The position numbers were made by a program, and so were the translations under genes. Source: Opitutaceae bacterium (GTDB lineage Bacteria; Verrucomicrobiota; Verrucomicrobiia; Opitutales; Opitutaceae). From it: a stretch of 32,000 nt of DNA. The stretch lies in the NCBI GenBank assembly GCA_947474995.1, contig CANJNJ010000020.1:11036-43035 (forward strand), given 5' to 3'. Below, one piece after another: positions 931 to 31,535 of the stretch (positions are counted from its first letter, which is position 1; each line of letters starts with the position of its first letter). The notes beneath the pieces were generated by a model. The model saw only the letters and a list, made by a program, of their open reading frames with translations, did no database searches and was not told where the DNA came from.

Positions 931-937
931 AACGCCG

Positions 938-3623: not shown

Positions 3624-3636
3624 ATTTGCCGGGGTC

Positions 3637-5055: not shown

Positions 5056-5058
5056 CGC

Positions 5059-6656: not shown

Positions 6657-6684
6657 TTTTCCCCGCCCCTTCCGAGCCTTCTCG

Positions 6685-7524: not shown

Positions 7525-7625
7525 CGACGGTTTTCGCCCTCGGGGTAGTCAGCGCTCAACCACGCGACTCGGAGACTCGCGCCACATCGCGCTGGGCTCC
7601 GACCGGCGTCGGCCGTCCGGATCCA

Positions 7626-11017: not shown

Positions 11018-11101
11018 GACAGTAGCAGCAATGAATCCCCGAGCGCCGCGAACGGGTCGATGCAAATTTGGCCCGCCGGGATTTCGGGCGGCCGCGCGAA
11101 C

Positions 11102-11539
11102 TCAAGTCGTGCCCACCGCTCCGGACGCCGACGCGCCGCGCGGGCGCTTCGCCGGCTGGAAGGGTTTTACGAACGCGTCGTCGAATTCAAAAATGTCCGC
11201 AAAATCCTCCCGCCGGTCGCTTTCGGTTTTAGAAAAGACGTTGTATTCGATCAGGTTGAAGACGATCTCGCCGAAATCACGGCACCGCCGGACGCCCCAG
11301 GCATTCAACACCGTCTTCGCCAGCGGTCCAAACTGCTCCAACGCGTAGGCCCGAAGACCCTCGAGTAATTCCGCGCCGCTGACGTGCCGCGACTTCTCGG
11401 TTCGGACGGCGTCCTTCTTGCGCAATTCCTTAACTTTTTGATCCAAACCCAGTCGCACAAAATCGTACGCCTTTCGGTCAAAACGGGGATCTTCTTTACA
11501 GATCAGGGTGACGACTTCGTTAAAATCGGGTTGTTGCAT
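11102..11539 (-). CDS. Conserved hypothetical protein resembling the Verrucomicrobia/Planctomycetes-restricted 'Minf_1886 family' (TIGR04138, from memory)
   Basis: Trimmed to the ATG at 11539 (MQQPDFNEV..), because the 11557 start is GTG. Family-like strings are HVSGAELLEGLRAYALEQFGPLAKTVLNAWGV...DFGEIVFNLIEYNVFSKTESDRREDF. The gene lies 84 bp upstream of the M16 gene on the same strand. Confidence 0.55.
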   Translation of the reverse strand: MQQPDFNEVVTLICKEDPRFDRKAYDFVRLGLDQKVKELRKKDAVRTEKSRHVSGAELLEGLRAYALEQFGPLAKTVLNAWGVRRCRDFGEIVFNLIEYNVFSKTESDRREDFADIFEFDDAFVKPFQPAKRPRGASASGAVGTT

Positions 11540-11667
11540 CGCGGAAACGTACCTCACTTTGCCCGCGTCGCTCCTGGGCGCAACTCTGGACGCGTACGAA
11601 CACAGACGTCCTTATCCGGCCAAATATTATCTGGAAAATTCGCCTAAGACGTCAAATAATTGCAAGA

Positions 11668-12198
11668 ATGATAGCCTCGACCCAAACTAATCATCCCCTA
11701 ACCGGCAATAGTAAGATCCCGGGAAAGACGCCGACGGCTATCGAGTTTTCGACGGCAAAATTAAAATTAGCGGGTCTCCGGATCACGCAACCGCGCCTCG
11801 CCATCCTCGCCACCCTGAGCAAGCGCGCCCAACCCACCAGTATTGAAAGTCTCCATGCCGACGTCGGCGTGGAAAAATGCGACCTCGTGACGGTCTACCG
11901 CTGCATGGCCGCCTTCGAGCAGATCGGTCTGGTCCGCCGTTCCTTTTTTCACAACGGCACCGCCCTCTACGAAATCAATCTCGGCCAGCCGACGCGTTAT
12001 CACGTGGTGTGCAAGAGTTCCAACCGGGTGGAAGAGTTGGACGCGCAAACCTCCGAGGAACTCCGGCACGCGATCGAAAGCGTCCAGGGAAAACTGCGGG
12101 CGCACGGCTATGCCGACGTCGGACACATCGTCGAGTTCTTCGGTGTCGCCCCCCAGCATAACCGAATCCCTGCCCCCGTTTCGCATCCGGTGCGCTAA
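11668..12198 (+). CDS. Fur-family transcriptional regulator homologue with most canonical metal ligands replaced
   Basis: Winged-helix region LKLAGLRITQPRLAILATL...LVTVYRCMAAFEQIGLV and dimerisation region YHVVCKSSNRVEEL...HIVEFFGVAPQ align to E. coli Fur. ATG start in an AT-rich divergent intergenic region. Confidence 0.7.
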   Translation: MIASTQTNHPLTGNSKIPGKTPTAIEFSTAKLKLAGLRITQPRLAILATLSKRAQPTSIESLHADVGVEKCDLVTVYRCMAAFEQIGLVRRSFFHNGTALYEINLGQPTRYHVVCKSSNRVEELDAQTSEELRHAIESVQGKLRAHGYADVGHIVEFFGVAPQHNRIPAPVSHPVR

Positions 12199-12228
12199 CC
12201 CGCCGGGACGCCAAGTCCCTTCTTCCCG

Positions 12229-12259
12229 GCGCGGGCCTTCGGCCCGCGCTTTTTTATTT
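12229..12259 (+). terminator. Rho-independent terminator downstream of the Fur-like gene
   Basis: Perfect 9-bp stem GCGCGGGCC (12229-12237), loop TTC, GGCCCGCGC (12241-12249), followed by TTTTTTATTT. Confidence 0.75.
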
Positions 12260-12328
12260 CCGCCGGCCGGCCCGTTGAAGCCGGCTTGCCAAATTGGCTC
12301 CGCCACCCGAGGTTCAGCCTTGCTCCCC

Positions 12329-13231
12329 ATGTCCTCTCCCATCTCCCGCCGCACCGCGCTGCGCTCCATGGCCGGAGTCGCCGCGCTCGCCACCCTCCCC
12401 CGTTTGCCGGCCGCTGACAACGCCACTCCCGTGTCCAAGAGCCCCGGCACCTTCGCCAACCATTCCGTGTGCAAGTGGTGCTACAAGGACATCCCGCTCG
12501 AACCGTTCGCCAAGGCGGCGAAGGAAATCGGCCTGGCTTCGATCGAACTGCTCGCGCCCGAGGATTTCCCCACGCTGCGAAAATACGGCCTCTCCTGCGC
12601 CATGGTCAGCAATCCCACCCTGCAAACTGCACCGGGCGTGACGATCGGCCATATTCCCAAGGCGTTCAACCGGCTCGAACACCACGACATTCTCACGGGA
12701 CTCTACGAAAAACGCATCGCCGAGGTGGCCGACGCCGGCTTTGAAAACCTGATTTGTTTTTCCGGCAATCGGGAAAAAATGGACGATCAACAGGGCCTGG
12801 AAAACTGTGTGGTCGGGCTAAAACGCCTCATGGCGGTCGCCGAAAAACGCCGCGTGACCATCTGCATGGAACTGCTGAATTCGAAGGTGAACCACAAGGA
12901 CTACATGTGCGATCGCACCGCCTGGGGCGTGGAGTTGGTCAAACGCGTCGGCTCCCCCCGGTTCAAGCTGCTCTACGACATCTACCACATGCAGATCATG
13001 GAGGGAGATGTCATCCGCACCATTCAGGAGAATCATCCCTACATCGGCCACTACCACACGGGAGGAAACCCCGGGCGCAACGAGATCGATGAAACGCAGG
13101 AAATAAATTACCCGGCGGTGATGCGCGCGATTGTGGCGACAGGTTTCAAGGGTTTCGTCGCCCAGGAATTCATCCCGAAACGCGATCCGCTGACCTCCCT
13201 GCGCCAGGCGGTGAAGATCTGTACGGTCTGA
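12329..13231 (+). CDS. Tat-exported xylose-isomerase-like TIM-barrel protein (hydroxypyruvate isomerase family)
   Basis: Trimmed to the ATG at 12329. The twin-arginine signal is MSSPISRRTALRSMAGVAALATL. Family features are NHSVCKWCY, GLASIELL, TICMELLN and the YDIYHMQIMEGD..HYHTGGNPGRNE pattern. Confidence 0.8.
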   Translation: MSSPISRRTALRSMAGVAALATLPRLPAADNATPVSKSPGTFANHSVCKWCYKDIPLEPFAKAAKEIGLASIELLAPEDFPTLRKYGLSCAMVSNPTLQTAPGVTIGHIPKAFNRLEHHDILTGLYEKRIAEVADAGFENLICFSGNREKMDDQQGLENCVVGLKRLMAVAEKRRVTICMELLNSKVNHKDYMCDRTAWGVELVKRVGSPRFKLLYDIYHMQIMEGDVIRTIQENHPYIGHYHTGGNPGRNEIDETQEINYPAVMRAIVATGFKGFVAQEFIPKRDPLTSLRQAVKICTV

Positions 13232-13248
13232 TCGGGCCAGGGCCGCCC

Positions 13249-13479
13249 ATGCCTCCCCGCTCGCTGTTTCTGGCCAGGGCCATTCGTTACGGCCTGCTCA
13301 GCGCAGGGTCGTCCGCCCTCATTTCCGGCGGGGTTAATCTTTACGCGGCGTTTCAGCTCATCGATTCGTCGGCGGAACAATCGCTCGGCCTCACCCGCCA
13401 GGAGGTCATCGCCTGGTGCTGCGCCTCGATCGTCGCCGGCGGACTCTTGTTGTTTTTGGGCATCCGCCGCAAAGCGTGA
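13249..13479 (+). CDS. Small hypothetical membrane protein (two predicted hydrophobic helices)
   Basis: 76-aa ATG ORF, 18 bp after the isomerase stop. Hydrophobic segments are YGLLSAGSSALISGGVNLYAAF and VIAWCCASIVAGGLLLFLGI. No recognisable family. Confidence 0.35.
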   Translation: MPPRSLFLARAIRYGLLSAGSSALISGGVNLYAAFQLIDSSAEQSLGLTRQEVIAWCCASIVAGGLLLFLGIRRKA

Positions 13480-13596
13480 ACCATTCTTCCGAAGCCGAAT
13501 CCGAGCCCTCACCGTCACGGACGCGAAACGGACTGGGCGCCAGCGTGTGCCTCGGCGTCGTTTCCGGCAGTGGGTTGGTCCCTTCTACCAACCTGC

Positions 13597-15048
13597 TCAC
13601 GGCGCCGCCAGCAGCCGCCGCAACGTCTCGTCAACGAGCTTGGGGTTGGCCTTGCCTTTGCCAACTTTCATCACCGGGCCTTTCAGCGCGTTGATCGCGC
13701 TGTCCTTGCCACTCTTGAATTCCGCCACGGCCTTCGCATTCCCGGCGATGGCGTCGCGACACCACTGCTCCAGTTCGCCGGCATCGGTGGGCGCGGCCTT
13801 CAGGCCCTTGCGCTCGGCGATGGCCTCGGGTTGGTCACCGCTGGAAAACATCTCGATGAAAATCTCCTTCGCCGCGTTCGTCAGCACGGCCCCAGAATCG
13901 ACCAGCTTAACGAGCGCCGCGATCTGCGCCGGACTGACCTTCGACTGCGCCAGCTCAAGCTTTGCGCTCCCCAATTCCCGCAAGAGATCGTTCGCGATCC
14001 AGTTTCCGACCGCCTGGGGTTTACCACTGAGTTTCGCGGCGGATTCAAAATAATCGGCCAAAGTCCGATCCCAAACCAGGACCGACGTCAGCGTGTAAGG
14101 CAGTTGATACTGCTCGACGAAACGCCGCTGCTTGTCGAACGGCAGTTCCGGACACTCGGCGCGCAGACGGGTCTTCCACGCCTCATCCACTTTGACCGGC
14201 ATCAAGTCCGGATCCGGGAAATAGCGGTAATCGTGAGCCATTTCCTTTGAGCGCAACGACTGCGAGGTTCCCGTCTGGCCATCATAATCACGCGTTTCCT
14301 GGACGAGCGTGCCGCCCCGCTCCACGACCGCGAGCTGCCGCTTGATCTCGTGGGCGATGCCATCGCGCACGAAGGAAATCGAGTTGAGATTCTTGAGCTC
14401 GACCTTGGTGCCAAGCGTCGTCTGACCCACCGGGCGAATGGAAATATTGGCATCACACCGGAGCTGCCCTTTCTCCATGTCGCAGTCGGAGATGCCGCCA
14501 TAAACCATGGCCGCCCGCAGTGACGTGAGATACGCGTAGGCCTCCTCCGCCGAGTGCATCGCCGGATCGGAAACAATTTCCATCAGCGGCGTGCCGGCCC
14601 GGTTGTAATCGACGAGCGAATCGGTCGCGCCGTGATTCAGCTTGCCGACGTCCTCTTCGAGATGGATGCGAGTCAGGGGGATTTTCTTGTGCTCGCCCAT
14701 CAGGTTGCGCGCCGGTCCCGGGAGTTCGATCTCGACGGAGCCGCCCAGGCAGAGCGGCTGATCGTACTGCGAAATCTGGTAGTTCTTCGGGGAGTCGGGA
14801 TAAAAATAGTTCTTCCGGTCCCATTTGCAGACGGGCGCAATCTGACAACCGAGGAGCAACCCCGCCTTGATGACCGCATCGAGCGCCGCCTTGTTCATGA
14901 CGGGCAGCGTGCCGGGCAGCGCGAGCACCACCGGGTCCGTTAACGTGTTGGGCTCATGACCGTAGCCCGCGGCCACACGCGTGAAAATCTTCGACCGCGT
15001 CTTGATTTGAACATGAACCTCGAGACCGATGACAACTTCGTAATTCAT
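13597..15048 (-). CDS. gatB: Asp-tRNA(Asn)/Glu-tRNA(Gln) amidotransferase subunit B
   Basis: Trimmed to the ATG at 15048 ([17 protein letters not shown]..), which overlaps the gatA stop by 1 nt. GatB is recognisable along the full length, including the C-terminal YqeY-like tail. Confidence 0.95.
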   Translation of the reverse strand: MNYEVVIGLEVHVQIKTRSKIFTRVAAGYGHEPNTLTDPVVLALPGTLPVMNKAALDAVIKAGLLLGCQIAPVCKWDRKNYFYPDSPKNYQISQYDQPLCLGGSVEIELPGPARNLMGEHKKIPLTRIHLEEDVGKLNHGATDSLVDYNRAGTPLMEIVSDPAMHSAEEAYAYLTSLRAAMVYGGISDCDMEKGQLRCDANISIRPVGQTTLGTKVELKNLNSISFVRDGIAHEIKRQLAVVERGGTLVQETRDYDGQTGTSQSLRSKEMAHDYRYFPDPDLMPVKVDEAWKTRLRAECPELPFDKQRRFVEQYQLPYTLTSVLVWDRTLADYFESAAKLSGKPQAVGNWIANDLLRELGSAKLELAQSKVSPAQIAALVKLVDSGAVLTNAAKEIFIEMFSSGDQPEAIAERKGLKAAPTDAGELEQWCRDAIAGNAKAVAEFKSGKDSAINALKGPVMKVGKGKANPKLVDETLRRLLAAP

Positions 15049-16508
15049 CAGAGATTCGGATGTCTGGCACTCCACTCGTGCGCTTTTTCATAAGCCTGCG
15101 CGATCGCGAGCAGGCCGGCCTCGTTGAAGGGTTGGCCGATGAGTTGCATGCCGATCGGCAACCCGCTTTTGGTAAACCCGCACGGCACGCTGATTCCCGG
15201 GAGACCCGCGAGATTCACGCCGATGGTATAGATATCGCACAGGTAAAGCGCGAGGGGATCGGTTTTCTCGCCGATCTTAAAGGCGGGAATCGGCGACGTG
15301 GGCGTAAGCAACGCGTCGACGTCGCGATAGGCGTTGAGAAAATCCTGGCGGATCAGCGTGCGGACTTTCTGCGCGCGGAGATAGTACGCGTCGTAGTAGC
15401 CGCTCGAAAGGACGTAGGTGCCGAGGATAATCCGGCGTTTGACCTCCGCCCCAAATCCTTCGGCCCGCGACTGGAAATAGAGGTCAACGACGTCCTTCGC
15501 ATTCTTCGCCCGGTGACCGTAGCGAATCCCGTCGTAGCGGGCGAGGTTCGAAGACGCCTCGGCCGTGGCGATGATGTAATAAGTATCGAGGCAATACTGC
15601 GTGTGCGGCAGCGACACCTCTTTGATTTCGCAGCCCTGCGCCCGATAAAACGCGATGGCCTTCTCGACCGCCGCGCCGATTTCCGGATCGAGCCCGGCGC
15701 CAAAGTACTCCTTCGGGATGCCCAGCCGCCACGGGCCCTGGCGCGCGCCGAGTTCGGCCCGATAATCGGGCACGTCGGCTTTGAACGACGTCGAATCCAA
15801 GGGATCGTGGCCGGCGATCGCACCCAGCACGATGGCGGCGTCCTCTACCGTTCGCGCAAACGGCCCGATCTGATCCAGCGAAGAGGCAAAGGCGATGAGA
15901 CCGTAACGCGAAACCAACCCATACGTCGGTTTGAGCCCGACGACTCCGCAGAACGCCGCCGGCTGGCGAATTGAACCACCCGTATCGGAGCCCAGCGTCG
16001 CCGTCGCTTCGCCCGCCGCCAGGGCCGCGGCGCTGCCACCCGACGAACCACCGGGCACGCGCGTCGGGTCCCACGGATTCCCCGTCGGATGAAAGGCGGA
16101 ATTCTCCGTCGACGAACCCATGGCGAACTCGTCGCAATTCAGCCGCCCCCACAGCACCGCCCCCGCCTGCTTGAGCTTGACCGTCACCGTCCCGTCGTAG
16201 GGCGAAACGAAGTTCGCGAGCATCTTGCTCGACGCCGTGAGCGGCTGGCCCGTCACCGCGATGACGTCCTTCAGCCCAATCGGAATTCCATCGAGCGCTC
16301 CCCTCGCCTGCCCGGCCGCCCGGCGGGCATCGGATTCGGCCGCCTGCGCCAACGCGTCGGCCTCATCAAACGAGTTAAACGCCTGCACCCGGCCCTCGAC
16401 CGCCTTGGTGCGCGCGATCACGGCCTTCGTCAGATCGACGGCAGAGTATTTTTTCGCGGCCAGCCCAGCCGCATGTTCCGCGATGGATTGAAAATAAAGT
16501 TCAGACAT
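15048..16508 (-). CDS. gatA: Glu-tRNA(Gln) amidotransferase subunit A (amidase signature family)
   Basis: Amidase signature [36 protein letters not shown]. Features are [12 protein letters not shown] and gatCAB gene order. Confidence 0.95.
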
Positions 16509-16968: not shown

Positions 16969-18159
16969 TTATGGCTTCAGGGCGTTTTCGACGGCCTGCT
17001 GGTACGCCCGGCGCATGACGGAGTCGTCCGCGTTAGGCAGCTCCGCCCGCTGGATCATAAAGACGTAGACCAACCCCCGCGTCGGATCAGCCCAGCTATT
17101 CGTGCCGTGGGCGCCGCCATGGCCAAACGACCCCGGCGTCAGCGTCGAGTTGGCCTCCATTTGCTTGGATGGCCCGACCACGTTGAAACCCAGCCCCCAC
17201 CCAATGCCCGGCCGCGTTACAAGGTCACCGGTTTGAATTCGGGTCATTTCAGCCACGGTTTCGACCTTGAGGATTCGGCGCCCGCCGGCTTCCCCGCCAT
17301 TGAGCATCATCTGGTAAAACTTTGCCACGTCCTCCGCCGTCGAGAAGAGCCCCGCTCCGCCGAGCGCCGGTCGCCCCCGATCGGCAATCGCTCCGCCGTA
17401 GAGGTACTTGATGACGACCTCCTCCAATTTTCCGGTCGCCGGATTTTTCCGGTAGTTGTGGGCGAAGCTCGTTTGCTGCTCCGGTGTCAGCCAGAATGCA
17501 GTGTGTTTCATCTGCAGCGGATCGAGCAGCCGTTTCTGCATGAACGTGCTGAAGGGTGTTCCGCTGACGACTTCGACCACGCGACCCAGCACATCGATCC
17601 CCGCCGTAGAATAACCCCAGCGGCTGCCCGGCGGAAAACGCAGCGGCTCGCGCGCGACCACCTTGCTCATTTCCGCCAGCGTCCAATGCGGGTCGGTCAC
17701 CACATACTCGCCCAGGCCACTCCGGTGGGTCAGCAGATCGCGCAGCGTGATCGGACGAGCCGGCTTCACCAACACGCGACGTTCGGGGGTCTGCTCGTCC
17801 ATCAGCCACTGCTGCTTGAATTCCGGCAGGTACTTCTCCACCGGGTCGTCAAAAGTGATTTTTCCGTCGTCCGCCAGCAGCGCCACGCACACCGCCGCCA
17901 TCGGTTTCGTCATCGATGCGATCCAAAAATAATCGTCGGGGCGCAGCTTCCGTCCCGTGGCCAGATCGCTTTGGCCCACCACCGAGAGGTGCAGCACCCG
18001 ATCTTTCGACGCCACAAGCATCACGGCGCCGGAGATTTCGCCCTGCTCCACGAACGGCCGAACGTGTTCGGACACACCCGCGAATTTGTCCGGCGCCGCC
18101 CCCAGGCGTCCGACCAAAAACGCCAGGGCGAAAAAGAAATGGGGTAAGCGGAATTTCAT
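16969..18159 (-). CDS. Secreted serine hydrolase, beta-lactamase/PBP4*-like family (PF00144)
   Basis: Signal peptide MKFRLPHFFFALAFLVGRLGAA. Has the SxxK motif (IASMTKP), YST in place of the YxN motif, and HGG (FGHGGAHGT). Confidence 0.85.
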   Translation of the reverse strand: MKFRLPHFFFALAFLVGRLGAAPDKFAGVSEHVRPFVEQGEISGAVMLVASKDRVLHLSVVGQSDLATGRKLRPDDYFWIASMTKPMAAVCVALLADDGKITFDDPVEKYLPEFKQQWLMDEQTPERRVLVKPARPITLRDLLTHRSGLGEYVVTDPHWTLAEMSKVVAREPLRFPPGSRWGYSTAGIDVLGRVVEVVSGTPFSTFMQKRLLDPLQMKHTAFWLTPEQQTSFAHNYRKNPATGKLEEVVIKYLYGGAIADRGRPALGGAGLFSTAEDVAKFYQMMLNGGEAGGRRILKVETVAEMTRIQTGDLVTRPGIGWGLGFNVVGPSKQMEANSTLTPGSFGHGGAHGTNSWADPTRGLVYVFMIQRAELPNADDSVMRRAYQQAVENALKP

Positions 18160-18255
18160 CGGTGTTAGCTAGCCCGCGGTCGATATGACGAAAAGGCTTA
18201 ATTCGCCCAGACCGTAGCGCCGGCCGGGAACGCGCAATAGAAATTGCGTTCCGCC

Positions 18256-22787: not shown

Positions 22788-24188
22788 TCAAGCATGAACG
22801 TAAACCGCGACGCTCACGGCAATCATCGAAAGGACCGTCAGGGCGAGAAACAGCGGTAAAACGAACCGGAACCACTTGCCGTAGGAAATTTCCGCCGTCG
22901 CCAGATAGGCGAGCAACATGCCGGAGGTCGGGGCGAACATGTTAATCAGCCCGTTGCCGAGGATGTACGCGACTACAGTCGCCTGGCCGCCGACCCCGGA
23001 CATGCCTGCGATCGGCACGAGGATCGGCATGCTGACCGCCGCTTTGGCCGAACCCGATGGGATCAACAGGCCGAGGAACATCTCAATCAGAACGAGTGCC
23101 ATCCCCACGACGTAATGGGGCAAATGCGCCGCCCAGCCGGCGAGAAAGTTGACGATTGTGTCTAGAATAAGCCCATCCTGCAGGATGATTTCGACCCCCT
23201 TGGCCATGCCGACGAGGAATCCAGCGAGCACCATGCCCTTCATGCCATCGATCATGCTGTGCACGGCCCGCCTCGGACCGAGGCCTGCCACGGCGGCAAT
23301 CAGTCCGCCCATGAAAAGATAGTACGTGGCAAACTCGACGTCCTTCCATCCCCGCGCCGTGGCGCCGTAAATCAGCACGGCTACGGAAAAACCCAGGAGG
23401 GCGACGATGGTCCCGTGGCGCGCGGTCATCGGCGTGGAACTCATTGGCGGAGCCGCGGCTCCGACCGTCGGTGTCCGGGCAAACCGCATGACGTAAAAAA
23501 TTCCCGCCGCCATGAACACCACCCAGATTCCGAGGCGAAACGCGAGCCCGCTGAACACCGGCACCCCGGCGATCGGCTGCGCGACCATCAGGATCACCGG
23601 ATTGGCGACCGAGGCGATATAGCCAATTTTGGCGGAGACCGTCACGACCGCGAAGCCAAACATCGGTTCGAGCCCGAGCCGCTTCGAAAGCGCCAGGAAG
23701 ATCGGGATGATGAGAAGGTATTCCGAAATCAACCCGAGGAAGGTGCTGCCCGCCGAAATCGCGAGCATCAGGATTACCGTCAGGAGAGCCGTCTTCCCGC
23801 TTGTGAGGACCAGCAACCGCTCGATGGCAATTTCGACCGTGCCGGTGGCCCGCAGCACGCCAAACATTCCGCCCAGCGCGGCGATCATGAAAATCAGGCT
23901 CGCCGCCCGCACCATGCCCGGCGGCACCGACGTGAAGATGGCGGCAGGACTGGCGGGGTATGCCTCCACGTTACCGGGGGCCGGCGCATGGGGCAGCAGA
24001 CCCGCCGCGGAAATTTCCTTCGGCACCGTGGCGTAGGTGCCGGGCTTCACGAGGCCCTTGGCCGTGCGTTGAAAAATACCCGAGGGAATGGTCCACGTGA
24101 GCAGCGCGGCCGTCGCCAGCGCGACCAGCATCATCAGCACCGGATCCAGCGACCAGGCGCCGCGCGCCTTCGGGTTGGGGGCACTCAT
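22788..24188 (-). CDS. YfcC-family integral membrane transporter (DcuC/IT superfamily)
   Basis: Multi-TM protein. It closely resembles E. coli YfcC: LTWTIPSGIF, NPVILMVAQPIAGVPVFSGLAFRLGIWVVF and IPSGSAKAAVSMPILVPIAGMSGV..ATVVAY. The ATG overlaps the upstream gene's stop (ATGA at 24185-24188). Confidence 0.85.
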   Translation of the reverse strand: MSAPNPKARGAWSLDPVLMMLVALATAALLTWTIPSGIFQRTAKGLVKPGTYATVPKEISAAGLLPHAPAPGNVEAYPASPAAIFTSVPPGMVRAASLIFMIAALGGMFGVLRATGTVEIAIERLLVLTSGKTALLTVILMLAISAGSTFLGLISEYLLIIPIFLALSKRLGLEPMFGFAVVTVSAKIGYIASVANPVILMVAQPIAGVPVFSGLAFRLGIWVVFMAAGIFYVMRFARTPTVGAAAPPMSSTPMTARHGTIVALLGFSVAVLIYGATARGWKDVEFATYYLFMGGLIAAVAGLGPRRAVHSMIDGMKGMVLAGFLVGMAKGVEIILQDGLILDTIVNFLAGWAAHLPHYVVGMALVLIEMFLGLLIPSGSAKAAVSMPILVPIAGMSGVGGQATVVAYILGNGLINMFAPTSGMLLAYLATAEISYGKWFRFVLPLFLALTVLSMIAVSVAVYVHA

Positions 24189-25045
24189 GCGACGGCCTGC
24201 CGAGTCCGCTGGGCCATGGCATGGGCAAAGGCCGTGAGATCGGCCTGAACCTCGGCAAAGCCAGGGCCGCGTTGAAACGTCGCTTCGTTCATGTAGAGCG
24301 CGCGATTAAGTTCGATTTGGACGCTCGTCCGCCCTTGGGCCGGCTGGCCATGGGTCCGGATGATGTCGGCGCCGCGGTACGGATCGTTGATTTTCACGTG
24401 GTAGCCGAGCCGCGTAAAATAGTCCGCAACCCACGCCGTAAATTCCGGGGCCGCGGTCGCGCCCCCGCGATCGCTTATGACCAAATCAGGACGTGCCGCG
24501 CCGTCGTCGCGGTTCATCGCGTTGCCTCGCGACTTCATCGAGTGGCAGTTAAAGTGGTACACCACGCCATGGCGGCGCCAAGCGGAGTCGAGCGCGGACT
24601 GTAGGGCCTGGCGATAGGGCGTGTAGTACCGGTCGATACGCTTCCGCACCTCTGCGACGGAGAGCTTGCGGTGGTACATCGGCACGCCGGGCAACGCGAA
24701 GCGACGGATGAGTCCCATGCCGCGTCGGGCGTGTTCACTCAGTTCAATCGGGGTCGGCCACGCTGTTTCGAGCAGGTCGGGGTCGAGGTCGCTCACCGCC
24801 CGGTTCGCATCAATGTAGGCGCGGGGGAAACACGCGGCCAGCAGCGTCGCGCCGGCGGCTGGCACAAAGCCGAACAACTCGTCCACAAACGCATCCCACG
24901 TTGTGCAGATCTCCTCCCGCGACGCAATCGGGGCAAAATCCTCCGGGTATTCGATCGCGCTGTGAGGGGAATCAAAGACCAGTGGCGCTTGTGGCGCGCT
25001 CGGCGCCCGCAGGACGAACGGTGCCGGAGCATCGGAAGGTGACAT
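24185..25045 (-). CDS. N-formylglutamate amidohydrolase family protein (PF05013), cytoplasmic
   Basis: Features are FDSPHSAIEYP, YIDANR, YHFNCHSM, INDPYRGADI and SVQIELNRALYMNE. No signal peptide. Confidence 0.85.
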   Translation of the reverse strand: MSPSDAPAPFVLRAPSAPQAPLVFDSPHSAIEYPEDFAPIASREEICTTWDAFVDELFGFVPAAGATLLAACFPRAYIDANRAVSDLDPDLLETAWPTPIELSEHARRGMGLIRRFALPGVPMYHRKLSVAEVRKRIDRYYTPYRQALQSALDSAWRRHGVVYHFNCHSMKSRGNAMNRDDGAARPDLVISDRGGATAAPEFTAWVADYFTRLGYHVKINDPYRGADIIRTHGQPAQGRTSVQIELNRALYMNEATFQRGPGFAEVQADLTAFAHAMAQRTRQAVA

Positions 25046-25079: not shown

Positions 25080-26507
25080 CTAGTCGCGGTAATTCAGTGC
25101 CGGCTGACGGTCGCCGAGCAGAGCCGAATAGATGAAGCCGGACCCGCGACGTTTCTCGAGTTCCGCCTTCGCGTTCGCGATGACACCGGGCGTGGTATAC
25201 AAATCGATGATCGTCCCGGCCATCGTCTTCGCCGCGACATTCATGCCCTTCAGGCCCAGCGTGGTCCCACTGCAGGCGGCGGCCTGCCAGCTGTGGCCGG
25301 GAGTTCCCGGCGCAAATGAAGCGGCGCGCAGGCCGACCGTGGGCACCGCCCAACTCACGTCGCCGATGTCGGTCGAACCACCGCCCTCTCGGGGCGGGCT
25401 CGCATTGAAGGGCTGCACGAGCGCCGCGGTTTCCGGTGCCCCCGCCGTCCCAATTACGGTCTGCCCGAGCTTCAACGCGAACGCCCGTTCCTCCGGCGTG
25501 TAGGTGACGCCGCCGACCGCGTTGAGATTTTCCTGCATGATCCGGCCGAGCACTTCGTTGGGCAGCAAATCATAGACGCCGCCCGTAATTTCCCATTCGA
25601 CCTTCGTGCCCGTCCCCAGCGCCGCGCCGGTCGCGGCCTTTTCCACGCGCTCCCAAACCGAGGCCACGATTTCGCGGTTGGGACTGCGCACATAATAGTA
25701 AACCTCGGCAAAAGCCGGCACCACATTTGGCGCCTCGCCGCCGTGTGTGATCACGTAGTGTATCCGGGTACTGTCGGGCACGTGCTCCCGCATCATGTTT
25801 ACCATGTGGTCCATCGCTTCCACGCCATCGAGGGCCGATCGCCCGCGCTCCGGCGACGCCGCGGCGTGCGACGCGAGACCGCGGAAACGAAACTTGCCCG
25901 ACTTGTTCGCCAGCGAGGGCATCATCGTGATGCCATTGCGATCGGCGGGATGCCAGTGGACGACGGCGTCGACATCCTTGAAAAGTCCGGCGCGAACCAG
26001 GTAAACCTTGCCCGATCCACCCTCTTCGGCCGGGGTGCCGTAGACCCGGATCGTGCCCTTTTGGCCCGTCGCCTTCATCCAGTCCTTCACGGCGACGGCG
26101 GACTCGGCCGAGGCAGTGCCAAATAAGTTATGGCCGCACGCATGGCCGGCCAGAACCCCCGCGCGCTCTTTTCTCTCCGGAATAGCCTCCTGTGAAACGC
26201 CGGGCAAAGCGTCAAATTCGGCGAGCACTCCGACGACGGGTGACCCGCTACCGTAAGTCGCCACAAACGCGGTCGGGATTCCGGCCACGCCAGCTTGGAC
26301 GGTAAACCCCTCTTTTCGGAGTTGCTCCTGCAGGAGCGCGGAACTCTTCACCTCGTGGTAACCCACCTCGGCATAGTTCCAAATCTTCATCGCGATGCCC
26401 TCGTAAACGGACTTGGTCTCGTCGATCCGCCGGAGCACATCCGGCTTGGAGGTTTGGGCGGCGACCGGCAGTAGGCTGGCGAGAAGGATGGGCAGCAGGC
26501 GTTTCAT
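25080..26507 (-). CDS. Secreted M20-family amidohydrolase, AbgB (p-aminobenzoyl-glutamate hydrolase subunit B)-like
   Basis: Trimmed to the ATG at 26507 (MKRLLPILLASLLPVAAQT, signal peptide), because the longer ORF would overlap the receptor gene. Features are AEFDALPG, GHACGHNLFG, GTPAEEGGSGK and GGSTDIGDVSW. Confidence 0.85.
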   Translation of the reverse strand: MKRLLPILLASLLPVAAQTSKPDVLRRIDETKSVYEGIAMKIWNYAEVGYHEVKSSALLQEQLRKEGFTVQAGVAGIPTAFVATYGSGSPVVGVLAEFDALPGVSQEAIPERKERAGVLAGHACGHNLFGTASAESAVAVKDWMKATGQKGTIRVYGTPAEEGGSGKVYLVRAGLFKDVDAVVHWHPADRNGITMMPSLANKSGKFRFRGLASHAAASPERGRSALDGVEAMDHMVNMMREHVPDSTRIHYVITHGGEAPNVVPAFAEVYYYVRSPNREIVASVWERVEKAATGAALGTGTKVEWEITGGVYDLLPNEVLGRIMQENLNAVGGVTYTPEERAFALKLGQTVIGTAGAPETAALVQPFNASPPREGGGSTDIGDVSWAVPTVGLRAASFAPGTPGHSWQAAACSGTTLGLKGMNVAAKTMAGTIIDLYTTPGVIANAKAELEKRRGSGFIYSALLGDRQPALNYRD

Positions 26508-26570
26508 TTTAGGAGGGTGAGCGATCGCGGGCCATCGGCCCGACCCAAGGGAGGAGAGCGCGTCCACGAA

Positions 26571-26596
26571 CGGCGGCCGGATGGAGCCGGCCGCCG
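26571..26596 (-). other. Perfect 10-bp GC hairpin in the receptor/M20 intergenic spacer
   Basis: CGGCGGCCGG (26571-26580), 6-nt loop, CCGGCCGCCG (26587-26596). It starts 7 nt after the receptor stop codon and has no U-tract. Confidence 0.4.
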
Positions 26597-26602
26597 ACGG
26601 GA

Positions 26603-29600
26603 CTAGAATTGCCGGGTAAGTTCCATGGACCAGATGCGACCCGGGAACAGCGTCGCATGCACCGACGTCGCGTAGCCGGCGGTGTCGGAGGTCAGGGGCG
26701 GCTCCTGATCGAACAGGTTGATTACGCCAACGCGGACCGAGGTGTTGCGCAGCCATTTCGACGCATCGCGATCGAAGCGATAGGCGATCGAGGCGTTGTA
26801 GCTGATGACATCGCGGACGATGTAGCGGTACGCGAAGCTGCCGCTGTCAAACTGCTTGGCGATGTACTTGGGCTCGCCGAGCTGCGTGTACACCGCGGCG
26901 CTCGTCGTCGCGGCAGAGTCGGCAAAAGCCCCGGTGTAATAGGCGCTGAGGTTGCTGCTCCAATTGTTCTTCCGCCAGTTCATCGTGGCGGTGCCGCGCC
27001 ACCGGGTGGTGCCGTCGATATCCAGCCGCTCCTGATTCGTGGGCGTGCCCCCCACGGGCGTCCGGATTTGGTAGGTGCTGATAAGATAGCTCCAATCGGT
27101 GCTGAGCGAAACCCGGCCGATGGGCAGCGTCGGCAGGAGATAGTTCACGCTGAAGTCGATGCCGTTGGCATAACCGCGGGCGAGATTTTCGTACGGCGCA
27201 CTGCGCGAGAAGACGGTGCCCACCGCCGCGACCTGCTGGGCCGCCGGGCGGGTGGAATTGTAGGTAGCGAAGGCCGCCAGTTCTTGAGCCGTCGGCGCAA
27301 AACGCACAATCGCGGGATCGCCCTTGTAGTTGGCCGTGCCGCTGCCGGCATCGATCTGGCCAACCGCCCGGCCGGCGGCCAGCTGGGACTGGGTGTAGGC
27401 ACGGAGGAGCACATTGTCCGAGTCGAGAATCTGGGTGTCCAAGCGCGAGCCCACGACGTCAGCCTGATCGATCTGCCAGTAATCCGCGGTCACCGACAGG
27501 CCCTTAACCCGGGGCACTTCGAGCACTAGGCCGGCACTCTTGCCGGTGGAGACAATCGGTTTCAGCTTCGTGTTGCCCGAGGTATAATTGCGCATCACGT
27601 ACGAGGCCGTCCCCAGGCTCTGCGAGAGATAGGGGTCCACGCGACCGGGCAGGCTGTCGACCGTGAACTGGTTGGGCGCGTAGAGCGTCGGCAGGTTGGG
27701 CGCGGCGAAACCGCGGTTGTAGGAGGCCCGCACCATCAACCCGCTGTAAGGGCGCCAGTTCAGACCAAATTTTGGCCGCGTCGTCGTGCCGAAATCACTG
27801 TAATTCTCATAGCGCGCCGAGGCCGTCAGCTCGAGGGAATGGAAACCCGGGATTTGTTTCTCGGGCATAATCACGGGGATGACGGACTCAACGTACGCGC
27901 TGTAGACATTGCGGTTGCCCGACGAGTCAGGCTTGGGTGAGGCGAGCACGTAGTCGTTGTCGTCCGGGTTCAATCCGGAGCCAGGGGGATTAACCCCGAC
28001 GTAGGGCGCGCGATGGTCAATGAACTGCTCGCGCCGAACCTCGGCGCCCGCGGCCAGCGTCACGGTGTTGCCCAAATAGTGGAACAGCGGACCGGACGTG
28101 CGGAAATCGAAGCTGGTGATGCCGCTGAAGCCTTCGCGCCGCCAGACCTGCACGAAGGTATCGAGGACACTCTTCGGATTCGTGTAGGGCTTGTCGGCGA
28201 CCACTGCATTGCCGGACACGCGGAAAGTGGAGCCGAAGGGATTGAAGGCGGTGGCATCCGTCCGCCGCAGCGCTGCCTGGAACAAGGATTCGCGAACCGC
28301 GCGGGGAGAAATGTCTGAGGTATAGGCCCGCGTATACAGCGCGCCACTTTCCCAGGTCCACTGATCAAAAACCTTGCCGCGCAGGCCCACGACTCCGCGA
28401 TAGACGCCAGAATTGACGTCGACGGCTTCGGCGCCGTTTTCGAGCAAGGACAAGGCGAGGAGCGTAATCGGCTGCGCCGTGCCGGTCAGGCGCGGAGTGC
28501 CGTCGGAGTTGGGGGCCCCCGTCGGAGAAAAAAAACGCGAACCGTACGGGTTGAAGGGATTATCCACCGACAGCGGCGCCAGTTGGTCGCCCGTCGGGGC
28601 GTTGAAATTGATCGGCTGCCGGAAAAGTCGCGTCTTCGCATGATAGAACGAAAGATCGGCGAACATCGTGATGCGATCGGTGAGGTCCACCTCGACGTTG
28701 TTGAACCAGTTGACGCGATCCGTCTTCGACTGGCCGATGGTCTGATATTCAGTGAGGTTGAAATAGAACTCGGGGTTGGCGGCGCGGGTGGGCGCCGCGG
28801 CCGTCAGGGCCAGGTTGCCATTGACCGGACGAAAATAGTTGGTGGCGGTACTCGCGCCGATCCGGAAGGTCGGATAAATGCCAATGGTGGCGCGGTCATC
28901 GAAGGCACTGCCGGGCACATTGAAGGGCGCCGGCGCCAGCGAGGAGTGATCCGCGTTCTTGGTCCGCGCCCGGTCCTTGTAGGGGATGGGCTCGCGTCGC
29001 AGGAAATCAACCGTGGTAAGCCAGCGGCCCTTGCCGGCGCCGAATTCACGTCCGTAGGTCAGGGTGCTTTGGTAACTCTGGCCCTCCCCGTGCTCCGGCA
29101 CGCCCATGCGGACGCGCAATTCGGTGCCGCGAAAATCCCTCCGCATGACATAGTTGATCACCCCGGCCACCGCGTCGGAGCCGTAGATGGCGGACGCACC
29201 GTCGCGCAACACGTCGATTCGCTCGATCCCTTGCGTGGGGAGCTGGTTGACATTCACCGAGAACGCCAGCTGGCCACCGTCGGGGGAAGTTACCGGATGG
29301 GGCGCTACCCGGCGGCCGTTGAGCAGCACGAGGGTGTTGCCCGTGCCAATGCCGCGCAGGTTGATGTTGGCGTTGTCGCCGCGCGAGTTGGCGCCGCCGT
29401 TCGTGGATTCATTCAGCGGGACGCTGGTGACCTGCGGCAGGGCGGTGAGGAGTTCGACTGGTGTGATGGCATTGCGGCTATCCATCATCTCCCGGTTGAA
29501 GACTGTGACCGGAAGGACTTTTTCAATCTCCATCCGCTTGATGTTCGAACCGGTGACGGTGAAGGCCTCGAGCTTGAGGGCTTCCTCCTTGCGTGCATCG

Positions 29601-29734
29601 GCCGCGGCGGCCGCGGCTGAAGCCGCTGGCGCCACCTGGGCAGATACGAACGGAACAACAATGAGCGCAGCGGCGAGCAACCCGGCCAGCGCGAGTCGAG
29701 TAGTGTTGGATTTGGTTTTCATAGCGATCGGCAT
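26603..29734 (-). CDS. TonB-dependent outer-membrane receptor
   Basis: 1043 aa. Signal peptide plus an Ala-rich linker, and a plug region (LEAFTVTGSNIKR, ITPVELLTALPQV, INLRGIG...TLVLLNGRR). It has a long beta-barrel with a C-terminal aromatic residue (..MELTRQF). An alternative start is the ATG at 29722. Confidence 0.9.
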   Translation of the reverse strand: MPIAMKTKSNTTRLALAGLLAAALIVVPFVSAQVAPAASAAAAAADARKEEALKLEAFTVTGSNIKRMEIEKVLPVTVFNREMMDSRNAITPVELLTALPQVTSVPLNESTNGGANSRGDNANINLRGIGTGNTLVLLNGRRVAPHPVTSPDGGQLAFSVNVNQLPTQGIERIDVLRDGASAIYGSDAVAGVINYVMRRDFRGTELRVRMGVPEHGEGQSYQSTLTYGREFGAGKGRWLTTVDFLRREPIPYKDRARTKNADHSSLAPAPFNVPGSAFDDRATIGIYPTFRIGASTATNYFRPVNGNLALTAAAPTRAANPEFYFNLTEYQTIGQSKTDRVNWFNNVEVDLTDRITMFADLSFYHAKTRLFRQPINFNAPTGDQLAPLSVDNPFNPYGSRFFSPTGAPNSDGTPRLTGTAQPITLLALSLLENGAEAVDVNSGVYRGVVGLRGKVFDQWTWESGALYTRAYTSDISPRAVRESLFQAALRRTDATAFNPFGSTFRVSGNAVVADKPYTNPKSVLDTFVQVWRREGFSGITSFDFRTSGPLFHYLGNTVTLAAGAEVRREQFIDHRAPYVGVNPPGSGLNPDDNDYVLASPKPDSSGNRNVYSAYVESVIPVIMPEKQIPGFHSLELTASARYENYSDFGTTTRPKFGLNWRPYSGLMVRASYNRGFAAPNLPTLYAPNQFTVDSLPGRVDPYLSQSLGTASYVMRNYTSGNTKLKPIVSTGKSAGLVLEVPRVKGLSVTADYWQIDQADVVGSRLDTQILDSDNVLLRAYTQSQLAAGRAVGQIDAGSGTANYKGDPAIVRFAPTAQELAAFATYNSTRPAAQQVAAVGTVFSRSAPYENLARGYANGIDFSVNYLLPTLPIGRVSLSTDWSYLISTYQIRTPVGGTPTNQERLDIDGTTRWRGTATMNWRKNNWSSNLSAYYTGAFADSAATTSAAVYTQLGEPKYIAKQFDSGSFAYRYIVRDVISYNASIAYRFDRDASKWLRNTSVRVGVINLFDQEPPLTSDTAGYATSVHATLFPGRIWSMELTRQF

Positions 29735-30012
29735 CGTGGGATGGGAATCAGGTCAATTAGCTGGGGGCAGAGAACGAAGTGAATTGGGTCAGGATTTTTT
29801 TCGCCGCACGGCCACGTTAGTCCGGTGCGAAAAGGGGTACTGGAGTCGCGCGCGTCACTTTTGCCATTCGCCCCACCTGCGACCGCACTTCGGCTTCATC
29901 CCATTGCGCAGTACCGGAGCATCCGGCGGCAACGCTCTTGATGATGGAGGAGCCTGCATGGTTCATCGCAAGATCCAGAAGCGGGAGCGACCGAACACAA
30001 AGGAAAAGGCCG

Positions 30013-30043
30013 CAACTAGAGTTGATTCTTACAACACAAGTTG
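30013..30043. promoter_or_regulatory. Two tandem CAAC-N4-GTTG palindromes upstream of the regulator gene (candidate operator)
   Basis: CAACTAGAGTTG (30013-30024) and CAACACAAGTTG (30032-30043), centres 19 bp apart. They sit in a locally AT-richer stretch 14 bp before the ATG at 30057. Confidence 0.3.
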
Positions 30044-30056
30044 CAGGCTCTCGCCA

Positions 30057-31535
30057 ATGGCCCGCGCGACACTGCTTACCTTTGTCAGCTACCGGGATCC
30101 CTACCAGACGGACAACCACGAGGACGGAAAGCTCAAGGGCCCCGTCCTGACGGTTCTCGACGAGCGAAAGTTCGACCGGGTCGTCCTCTTTTCCCGCCCC
30201 CACCGGCGCGATCAGGTCGAACGAACCCGGCTCGCGCTCCGGGAGTCGCATCCCAGGCTGGCCGTCGAGATCCACGAACTCGCGATCGCCGATTCCACCT
30301 ACCACCCTGGGATCCTCGCCGTCCTGCGCCCCGCCCTCGCCAAAATCCGGCGGGCCCAGCCGGATGACGAGTACTCCATTTCATTGCTCTCCGGCACGCC
30401 GGAGATTCACGCCTGCTGGGTGCTCATCGCCGTCGCGGGCGAATTCCCCGCCCGGCTCCTCAACTACCGGCGTACAGTACACAACGGACTCGCGGGGCCG
30501 CGCTTGTTGCGCGAGCTCGACTGGAGTCATCCTCTCGCCGCGATCAAACCGGAGACCCTGGCCTTGCTTTCGACGCGCCGCGACCGCTGGGATGACATCG
30601 AGCAGCAGGGCCCAGCCGGCAATATGCCGCGCCACTATTTCATTCGGCGTTCGCTGGAGCAGGCCGTGCAACTCAGCCGCCACACGACCCCGTTGCTGAT
30701 CCAGGGTGAGCCTGGCACCCAAAAGCACCTCATGGCCGCCTTGGTCCACCAGTTGGGAGCACGCCATACCGGGCCTTTGGTCATCTTTAACTGCGCCACG
30801 CTGCCGAACGATTTGTTTGAAGCCGCATTTTTCGGCGAAGCGGGAGACGAAGCCGGCGGCAAGCTGCGCCAGGCGGACGGCGGCACGCTCACGCTCATCA
30901 AAATCCAGCATGTGCCGCCGCCGGTCCTCGCCCGCCTGTTCAAGGCCTCCGACGATGGCTACTATTATGGTGCGGGTTCGCGCGTGCCGGTGAAGACGAG
31001 CGTGCGGCTGATCGGCACGACGGACCGCAATCTGGAAGAGGAGGTTCGCCTCGGGCAATTCCCCGCGGATATCTGGCGGAGGCTCCAGGCCAGCATGGTC
31101 CGGCTGCCCCCCCTGCGCGAACGCCCGGGCGACGCCGCGCGGCTCGCCCGGGAAGAATTGGAGCGTCTCAATCGTACGCTGCCGCGACCGAAGCGCTTTT
31201 CCCCGGGCGCTCTCGCCAAGCTGGAGAGCCATGCGTGGCCCAGCAACGTCAGCGAACTGCGCCGGGTGATCGAACAAGCCGTCGTCAACGCCGAGCAAAC
31301 CGTGATTCAGCCCGGAGACATCGACCTCGATCTTTCGGTGAACCTGACCAACACGTTTGCCAGCGCGGTGCCTCGCATCCGCGAGGGATTCTCCATGGAG
31401 GAATACCTGCGCACCATCAAGCACAGCCTCGTGCAAAGCGTCCTGCGCAAGACCCGCGGCAATCAGAGCGAGGCGGCTCGCCTGCTCGGAGTCAGCCCGC
31501 AGGCGGTCAGCAAGCTGCTCAAGAACTCCCGCTAG
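30057..31535 (+). CDS. RtcR-like transcriptional regulator: RtcR/CARF-like N-domain + degenerate AAA+ sigma54-activator module + Fis-type HTH
   Basis: The N-domain aligns to E. coli RtcR: EYSISLLSGTPEIHACWVLIAVAGEFPARLLN versus DYLIHITTGTHVAQICWFLLAEARYLPARLIQ. Central module: PLLIQGEPGTQKH, NCATLP, ADGGTLTLIKI, RLIGTT, LPPLRERPGD, WPSNVSEL. C-terminal HTH: GNQSEAARLLGVSPQAVSKLLKN. An alternative start is the ATG at 29958, which has GGAGG 8 nt upstream but is followed by 33 rare-codon-rich residues. The ORF-track start at 29187 overlaps the receptor gene and is rejected. Confidence 0.8.
   Translation: MARATLLTFVSYRDPYQTDNHEDGKLKGPVLTVLDERKFDRVVLFSRPHRRDQVERTRLALRESHPRLAVEIHELAIADSTYHPGILAVLRPALAKIRRAQPDDEYSISLLSGTPEIHACWVLIAVAGEFPARLLNYRRTVHNGLAGPRLLRELDWSHPLAAIKPETLALLSTRRDRWDDIEQQGPAGNMPRHYFIRRSLEQAVQLSRHTTPLLIQGEPGTQKHLMAALVHQLGARHTGPLVIFNCATLPNDLFEAAFFGEAGDEAGGKLRQADGGTLTLIKIQHVPPPVLARLFKASDDGYYYGAGSRVPVKTSVRLIGTTDRNLEEEVRLGQFPADIWRRLQASMVRLPPLRERPGDAARLAREELERLNRTLPRPKRFSPGALAKLESHAWPSNVSELRRVIEQAVVNAEQTVIQPGDIDLDLSVNLTNTFASAVPRIREGFSMEEYLRTIKHSLVQSVLRKTRGNQSEAARLLGVSPQAVSKLLKNSR

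Follow-up and report, generated by a model that had tools for sequence, protein, structure and literature searches.

Bacterial enhancer-binding proteins (bEBPs) that are independent of sigma-54 form an established class of atypical enhancer-binding proteins (EBPs), which includes TyrR, PhhR, HupR, HsfA, NtrX and VpsR (PMC6158489) as well as the NtrC proteins of R. capsulatus and Caulobacter (10.1101/2023.06.06.543975). Members of this class without a GAFTGA motif work at sigma-70 promoters, as reported for VpsR (PMC6158489) and for both NtrC proteins (10.1101/2023.06.06.543975). A CARF sensor is present in another group of regulators: in RtcR, the activator of the rtcBA RNA-repair operon, ligand at the CARF domain triggers or gates oligomerisation of the AAA+ module (PMC7790460), and CARF-NtrC-like proteins have been noted beside restriction-modification (R-M) systems (Makarova et al., 2014, PMC4012209). 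Here we analyse a gene located at positions 30057-31535 of a 32,000-nucleotide stretch of DNA (the window; positions 11,036 to 43,035 of contig CANJNJ010000020.1, GenBank assembly GCA_947474995.1) from a bacterium of the family Opitutaceae. Its product, hereafter the regulator, consists of a CARF domain, a pseudo-AAA+ module and a Fis-type helix-turn-helix (HTH). We regard it as fairly probable that the regulator is an ATPase-dead, sigma-54-independent, CARF-sensing atypical EBP that switches an uptake/hydrolase gene cluster via a conserved operator.

The regulator has the bEBP-type AAA+ fold and C-terminal HTH of the atypical EBPs, with GAFTGA lost or shortened, and these traits, along with a non-consensus ATP site, place its sequence within the definition of the class (PMC6158489). 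Its FGEAGDEAGGK loop resembles the 'EG.EG---GxxK' of NtrX (10.1101/2023.06.06.543975), its Walker B motif is non-consensus, as in VpsR (PMC6158489), and by analogy it would be expected to act at sigma-70 promoters or as a repressor. Unlike those proteins, which sense through receiver, ACT/PAS or REC domains, it carries a CARF sensor; its motifs have been lost to a greater extent, with changes in the Gly of Walker A, the Asp-Glu of Walker B, both sensor regions (I and II) and one arginine finger, and its predicted target is a TonB-dependent uptake/hydrolase locus. With RtcR it shares the CARF-AAA+-HTH order and an N-terminal domain that aligns to that of the E. coli protein, but identity is only 27%, the ATPase and sigma-54 motifs are missing, no rtcA/rtcB was seen beside it among the scanned open reading frames (ORFs) and no sigma-54 promoter was found. 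The closest intact relatives are instead the CARF-NtrC-like R-M/defence regulators (34-39% identity, same domain order). Their pocket motifs are nearly the same (F.G..DPY; SGTP[QE][MI]HACW), but they keep GETGTGKE, GAFTGA, LFLDE, FREDL and NVR[ED]L and adjoin type I R-M, GmrSD, Mrr or WYL genes, whereas the clade of the regulator stands in a nutrient-uptake context. The kinship with RtcR proposed in an initial annotation of the window, made from the sequence alone, holds for the N-terminal domain, which is of the RtcR type, but not for the nearest intact relatives, which belong to this R-M/defence family and not to RtcR proper.

Csa3, which is among the structural matches of the regulator, likewise couples a CARF sensor directly to a DNA-binding domain; it has a winged HTH and no AAA+ module, binds cyclic tetra-adenylate (cA4) and regulates cas genes, while the regulator does have an AAA+ module and no CRISPR context was seen. 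A full-text literature search, of incomplete coverage, returned no description of a CARF-sensing atypical EBP, of CARF combined with a degenerate AAA+ module or of a link to a TonB locus, and nothing on sigma-54 in Opitutaceae. Sigma-54-independent atypical EBPs being an already known class, what is new here is narrower, namely the CARF-sensing variant.

Sensor domain and replaced AAA+ motifs

The best Pfam match of the regulator was Sigma54_activat (PF00158; 100 bits, which seems rather low for a sigma-54 activator, cut-off 20.2; aa 196-346), accompanied by AAA_lid_14 (PF25601, 55 bits), HTH_8 (PF02954, 29.2 bits) and a borderline match to RtcR (PF06956; 23.2 bits against a cut-off of 23.1; aa 35-137), a family precomputed on most orthologues; a Csm6_CARF match remained below threshold. 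The best NCBIfam model was the RtcR equivalog NF038308, with 185.8 bits and a cut-off of 650 that was not reached. An AlphaFold2 (AF2) model of the whole protein, based on a 64-sequence alignment, had a mean pLDDT of 83, with disorder only in the linker (aa 169-188) and at aa 427-437. The linker is nevertheless conserved, with a mean pairwise identity of 0.67 and a ratio of non-synonymous to synonymous substitution (dN/dS, omega) of 0-0.2.

As Foldseek searches with the full-length model were dominated by the AAA+ domain and silent on the N-terminal domain, the latter was modelled separately (aa 1-162; pLDDT 91.6). The best 50 matches in the PDB were all CARF proteins, including Csm6, Cam1, Can2, Csx1, Card1, Csa3 and ring nucleases (E 4e-7 to 2e-3; TMq 0.66-0.71), so that the N-terminal domain is confirmed as a genuine CARF fold of the RtcR type. 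BLASTP against RtcR of E. coli K-12 (E 1e-24) reproduced the alignment of SGTPEIHACWVLIAVAGEFPARLL with TGTHVAQICWFLLAEARYLPARLI on which the initial annotation had based the same assignment. Both pocket loops are conserved, D14-P15 after strand 1 and S112-G-T-P-E-I-H118-A-C-W after strand 4, and their motifs show little or no variation, both within the clade and among the intact relatives, the latter also keeping D14, P15, G113, A119 and W121. CARF domains of the RtcR family have no K/R after strand 4 (PMC4012209), and neither does the regulator. Mutated ligand-contact residues of the RtcR CARF domain were sought in PMC7790460 for a comparison of the pockets, and its text gives none.

Motif changes in the AAA+ module were read from alignments to NifA, ZraR and NtrC1 and to 120 homologues (Table 1). 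The Walker A Lys is retained, with the preceding Gly changed to Gln, and the L1 loop is seven residues shorter, reading FGEAGDEAGGK, a shortening that holds across all members of the clade. The alignments revealed no intact GAFTGA or Walker B in the regulator. Each of the changes listed when nearly every bEBP motif was first described as altered was found again, with the qualification that the Walker A Lys and the second Arg of the arginine-finger region remain. The fold itself is preserved: Foldseek with the full-length model gave TMt of about 0.85 to the AAA+ domains of NtrC1, PspF and FlrC, the best full-length match being the atypical EBP NtrX, with VpsR also among the matches. Since catalytic and coupling motifs are replaced and the replacements are fixed throughout the clade, a loss of both ATPase activity and sigma-54 coupling, as the initial annotation had proposed, is as firmly backed as sequence data permit. 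The HTH was described from the start as intact, which agrees with its Pfam score, with the three helices of the model and with a stretch, NQSEAARLLGV.PQAVSK, that is almost invariant among orthologues.

The start codon at 30057 is backed by the N-terminus M-x-R-x-T-L-L-T-F-V, which is kept in 22 orthologous loci. P0001, the publicly called gene of the identical protein (525 aa), begins 33 codons further upstream, at 29958; this start was dismissed because all orthologues begin at MxRxTLLTFV and the N-terminal extension would be a translation through the conserved DNA palindromes of the operator. The mechanical ORF list carries the frame of the regulator back as far as 29187.

Table 1. Positions of the regulator gene, its domains and motifs, the putative operator elements and the neighbouring genes in the window.
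Feature	Position	Strand	Remarks
Regulator gene	30057-31535	+	492 aa + stop; CARF, pseudo-AAA+, Fis-type HTH
CARF sensor domain	30057-30551	+	aa 1-165
CARF pocket motif FVSYRDPY	30081-30104	+	
CARF pocket motif SGTPEIHACW	30390-30419	+	
Inter-domain linker	30552-30641	+	aa 166-195; pLDDT <50 at aa 169-188; sequence conserved
Pseudo-AAA+ module	30642-31346	+	aa 196-430; bEBP fold + AAA lid; PF00158, PF25601
Walker A remnant GEPGTQKH	30705-30728	+	canonical GESGTGKE
L1 loop remnant FFGEAGDEAGGKL	30828-30866	+	GAFTGA deleted
Walker B remnant GGTLTLIKI	30879-30905	+	canonical GGTLFLDEI; Asp-Glu to Ile-Lys
Sensor I region IGTTDRNL	31011-31034	+	canonical AATNRDL; ATN to TTD
Arginine-finger region FPADIWRRL	31059-31085	+	canonical FRxDLxxRL; first Arg to Pro, second Arg kept
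Sensor II region PSNVSEL	31239-31259	+	canonical NVREL; Arg to Ser
Fis-type HTH	31395-31529	+	PF02954 29.2 bits; three helices in model; intact
Third element, [GA]CAAA-N-AAT type (ACACAAAGGAAAAGG)	29995-30009		column conservation
Middle dyad CGCAAC-TAGA-GTTGAT (CGCAACTAGAGTTGAT)	30011-30026		3 bp from proximal dyad
Proximal dyad TACAAC-ACAA-GTTGCA (TACAACACAAGTTGCA)	30030-30045		begins 27 bp upstream of start codon
TonB-dependent receptor (TBDR)	26603-29734	-	plug + beta-barrel domains; divergent; probable first target
M20 amidohydrolase	25080-26756	-	TIGR01891 249 bits, cut-off 154
FGase-family (N-formylglutamate amidohydrolase-like) hydrolase	24185-25045	-	PF05013 223 bits; conserved in 16 loci and L033
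DcuC/YfcC-family inner-membrane carrier	22788-24188	-	PF03606 218 bits; YfcC-like 185 bits; also in L033

Conservation of the clade and its relatives

A homologue search covering 5.8 billion proteins yielded about 75 cluster representatives with 46-81% identity to the regulator, assigned, where named, to Opitutaceae, Opitutus or Horticoccus. The clade is narrow, since it accounts for only three clusters in a library clustered at 50% identity. These approximately 75 orthologues share the replacements found in the window (GEPGTQK[HQT], the short L1, GGTLVL[IL]K, TTD, FP..WRRL and SN[VIL]SEL), with GEPGTQK near-invariant and the Walker B [IL]K fixed, and the AAA+ module has acquired new invariant residues, Q222, K282 and S398. 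Values of dN/dS, calculated per segment by the Nei-Gojobori method on close orthologue pairs, were alike in CARF, linker, AAA+ and HTH (0.02-0.18), as were the mean pairwise identities of these segments (0.65-0.71).

These data bear on whether the gene is simply a decaying, non-functional remnant of an RtcR-like gene, as the loss of nearly all catalytic motifs and the low score with the RtcR equivalog model (186 bits instead of 650) might suggest. However, more than 70 cluster representatives have full-length intact ORFs, the motifs are fixed with identical replacement residues, omega is around 0.1 and the AF2 models are confident. Motif fixation and dN/dS effectively refute decay, to which we attach next to no credence, and the pseudogene reading was dismissed on these grounds. 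The wording of the initial annotation, which called the module catalytically decayed, is in this sense misleading. Strong purifying selection acts on the AAA+ module and thus maintains it for a purpose other than ATP hydrolysis.

Among more distant homologues, relatives with 39% identity or less have all motifs intact, and three proteins (P0069, P0073 and P0121) are intermediates in which Walker A (GEPGTGK) and FREDL are intact while GAFTGA is already lost, Walker B is ED or KD and sensor II reads TEL. We consider it rather likely that the regulator descends from a CARF-sensing sigma-54 activator and has become a transcription factor specific to the lineage of Opitutaceae and related Verrucomicrobiota. 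In the wider CARF-AAA+-HTH family, GAFTGA, Walker A or Walker B motifs have also been lost, in multiple instances, in seven further members (P0147, P0159, P0213, P0229, P0239, P0259 and P0263) whose sequences are unlike those of the present clade; the partial losses in unrelated family members are independent, and escape from sigma-54 may have taken place several times within the family. As for the intact CARF-bEBPs, those in three loci (P0086 and P0085; L025 8001-9509, L028 8001-9488 and L029 2776-4263) lie immediately upstream of HsdR/M/S, in surroundings with GmrSD, Mrr, an HTH_17 gene, a resolvase and AAA_15 ATPases that correspond to defence islands or mobile elements. Near another one, P0101 from a metagenome-assembled genome (MAG) of Spirochaetia (L026 6778-7806), lies a gene for a regulator of the WYL or WYL-WCX type; co-occurrence of CARF with WYL regulators is a known pattern.

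Putative operator and genomic context

A locus scan with one genome per species provided 22 orthologous loci, all from Opitutaceae, Opitutia or Verrucomicrobiota. Their anchored alignment revealed a block of around 55 bp directly upstream of the regulator that is common to all of them and contains two adjacent dyads. The 16-3-16 layout is kept, T[AG]CAAC-N4-[GA]TTGAT being followed by T[GA]CAAC-N4-GTTGCA (type TGCAAC-N4-GTTGCA), and the pair at 30011-30045 of the window has a repeat distance of 19 bp. Dyads of this kind resemble NtrC-type sites and would suit a dimeric Fis-type HTH. The third element, with a spacing of [GA]CAAA-N2-4-AAT across L001-L022 (ATT..TTTTG[CT] on the opposite strand), could be a half-site or a promoter element; it forms no clear dyad and matches no recognisable promoter hexamer. 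With up to two mismatches, TGCAACNNNNGTTGCA had 19 matches within the 120 bp upstream of the regulator in 23 loci and only seven in the remaining approximately 375 kb; in the window alone the number of dyads is within chance expectation, so that the evidence for an operator is comparative. The block persists in a deeper subclade with about 50% identity (TACAACTTTGGTTGTA). In addition, further copies are found where target operons are transcribed on their own: a 16-3-16 pair in L009 (11581-11616, 26 bp upstream of PGA_cap-TBDR-M20-FGase), a pair in L031 (4615-4649, 46 bp upstream of PGA_cap) and a single dyad in L033 (13801-13816, 49 bp upstream of FGase-DcuC-PGA_cap). Elsewhere in the window, a perfect palindrome of the same general type, CGCAAT-AGAA-ATTGCG (18233-18248), is situated between the pheT stop codon and a gene for a beta-lactamase-family serine hydrolase (16969-18159, minus strand, start at 18159); it could represent another site of the regulon or have arisen by chance.

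The position of these putative operators, 26-49 bp from start codons, fits a repressor or a sigma-70 regulator and not a sigma-54 enhancer, and the suggestion in the initial annotation of a ligand-gated DNA binder of sigma-70 or repressor type gains support from the conserved double dyad. A residual sigma-54-dependent function, either as activator or as a modulating or poisoning subunit in mixed rings with an intact bEBP, was nonetheless weighed. It could draw on the AAA+ fold and lid, which are intact and conserved, on the remaining arginine and Walker A lysine, on the resemblance of the 'TTGCA' of the dyad to the sigma-54 consensus and on the existence of intact CARF-bEBP relatives in Verrucomicrobiota, such as the GETGTGK/GAFTGA/LDE protein encoded beside a WYL-WCX gene in another Verrucomicrobiota MAG (L023, 1677-2849). 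We consider it very improbable, as GAFTGA is deleted and the Walker B Asp-Glu is replaced by Ile-Lys in all members, the dyad is symmetric and without the obligatory -24 GG, and no conserved TGGCAC-N5-TTGC was found. A weighted scan (TGGCACG-N4-TTGCW) of the intergenic region of the window and of 13 orthologous intergenic regions detected no conserved -24/-12 promoter, in keeping with what had been seen by eye in 29735-30056. Weak GG-N10-GC matches, the best being TGGCA-N7-CGC at 29866 on the minus strand (TGGCAAAAGTGACGCG), were dismissed as non-conserved. The dyad itself, which shares TTGCA with the -12 element, was likewise rejected as a sigma-54 promoter, because its positions 2-3 are AC, GC, TC or GT and not GG, both of its halves are symmetrically conserved and it occurs in two tandem copies. 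Moreover, orthologous intergenic regions are mostly 100-180 bp long and operators lie so close to the starts that a -24/-12 promoter with its leader, plus an upstream activator site and a DNA loop, could not be accommodated.

With 322 bp, the divergent intergenic region of the window (29735-30056) has about double the length seen in most orthologous loci. In the additional 150 bp or so, on the side of the TBDR gene, there is neither an Rfam match nor a site resembling a promoter or terminator, nor any conserved motif. An Rfam scan of the whole window found no RNA family and so no known riboswitch in the long TBDR leader.

On the other side of this region lie the TBDR and hydrolase genes of Table 1, in line with the initial description of the neighbours as a TonB-dependent uptake and hydrolase operon and not rtcA/rtcB. 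No match to the rtcA/rtcB families was obtained among the 20 window ORFs scanned with Pfam, nor among the called and Pfam-labelled neighbour genes of L031-L033. The M20 ORF as listed overlaps the end of the TBDR gene by some 150 bp and is too long at its 5' end; its true start is probably near 26450, since tblastn matches of orthologues begin at aa 69-106. Beyond the DcuC/YfcC carrier are pheS and pheT. Going by family names, import and hydrolysis of an N-acyl, gamma-glutamyl or peptide-like compound is the probable task of the operon. The rest of the window (100-16508) encodes enzymes of housekeeping or peptide-related function, namely a glutaminyl cyclase, an M24 peptidase, a PfkB kinase, a HAD hydrolase, an NAD kinase, an M16 peptidase pair, GatB and an amidase; the ORFs scanned in this part include no rtcA/rtcB, cas or sigma-54 genes. 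The window has 63% G+C, and its many long antisense ORFs are artefacts.

The association extends to the orthologous loci L001-L022, which were compared only with the proteins of the window itself and show the TBDR/hydrolase operon beside the regulator. In about 16 of the 22, the regulator adjoins a TBDR, with or without M20, plus FGase; the other loci are short contigs. A CapA/PGA_cap-family gene, related to the MslH epimerase, is placed between regulator and TBDR in seven loci, and one locus has an M14 carboxypeptidase. Gene order varies: the PGA_cap-TBDR-M20-FGase operon of L009 lies downstream of the regulator on the same strand, in the deeper subclade the regulator is again divergent from a TBDR with PGA_cap nearby, and in L033 a PGA_cap-DcuC-FGase operon is on the other side of the regulator. 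That the association survives these rearrangements argues for a functional link between the regulator and the uptake/hydrolase set.

Whether the dyads belong to this regulator has also to be considered, as they might serve another transcription factor, with the adjacency of regulator and TBDR being inherited order without regulatory link. All loci come from one lineage, the pairing of protein and dyad derives from their co-occurrence, and a long distance separates operator and TBDR start in the window. Nevertheless, no other regulator gene is conserved in the examined loci, the dyads stay with the regulator gene where gene order has changed and at identities as low as 50%, and they reappear upstream of relocated target operons, which makes this explanation improbable.

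Proposed mode of action and biological meaning

The scheme that we propose is that of a CARF-sensing atypical EBP acting without ATP turnover. HTH dimers would occupy the two dyads, and the pseudo-AAA+ module would serve only as oligomerisation and allosteric scaffold. By analogy with RtcR (PMC7790460), ligand at the CARF dimer would alter the oligomeric state or the occupancy of DNA. The output would be control of the regulator's own promoter and of the sigma-70-type promoter or promoters of the uptake/hydrolase operon. Owing to the location of the operators so near the start codons, a repressor or autorepressor relieved by ligand is favoured, with about an even chance; a class-II-type sigma-70 activator would be clearly less likely and a dual role less likely still.

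The sigma-70 alternative deserves attention in its own right. In it, the ligand-bound regulator would recruit or stabilise sigma-70 RNA polymerase at the divergent promoters, as VpsR or R. capsulatus NtrC do. Several characterised atypical EBPs lacking GAFTGA activate sigma-70 promoters, the two adjacent dyads resemble NtrC-type tandem sites, and in many loci they are 100-130 bp upstream of the TBDR start, a distance compatible with class I/II activation. On the other hand, operators at 26-49 bp from the starts of the regulator and of separate target operons would more likely overlap the core promoter, and we see activation of this kind as possible without expecting it.

Several points weigh against the scheme that we prefer. 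All loci are from one bacterial lineage, so that some of the synteny may simply reflect inheritance of gene order, and binding of the regulator to the dyads is inferred solely from their co-occurrence. In the window, around 277 bp separate the operator from the TBDR start codon, a greater distance than in most loci, which makes direct control of the TBDR promoter less clear here. No sigma-70 -35/-10 pair or terminator was recognised in 29600-30200, with scan rules that are not specific for Verrucomicrobiota. Finally, the retained Walker A Lys and second Arg make nucleotide binding without hydrolysis possible.

With regard to the signal, the CARF pocket is almost unchanged in comparison with that of the relatives in R-M/defence islands, which leads us to put forward, tentatively and with more doubt than conviction, that sensing of a nucleotide-type stress or infection signal (oligoadenylate or a 2',3'-cyclic-phosphate RNA end) has been retained and switches the TonB-receptor locus without ATP or sigma-54. 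If so, a defence-type second-messenger sensor would be coupled to outer-membrane uptake; phages commonly use TonB receptors for attachment. Alternatively, the CARF domain would have been retuned to some metabolite of the imported substrate that is not a nucleotide, a class of CARF ligand that to our knowledge is without prior description.

On the reading that we favour, the clade shows how a sigma-54 motor has been converted completely, and in a form maintained by selection, into a passive transcription factor gated by a ligand, and the surviving intermediates P0069, P0073 and P0121 constitute a natural series in which the exit of a bEBP from sigma-54 may be studied. CARF sensors usually belong to systems of CRISPR, RNA repair or restriction, and one placed at a nutrient-uptake locus would widen the possible uses of CARF signalling. 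The predicted operator and the compact regulon would make the system directly testable in culturable Opitutaceae.

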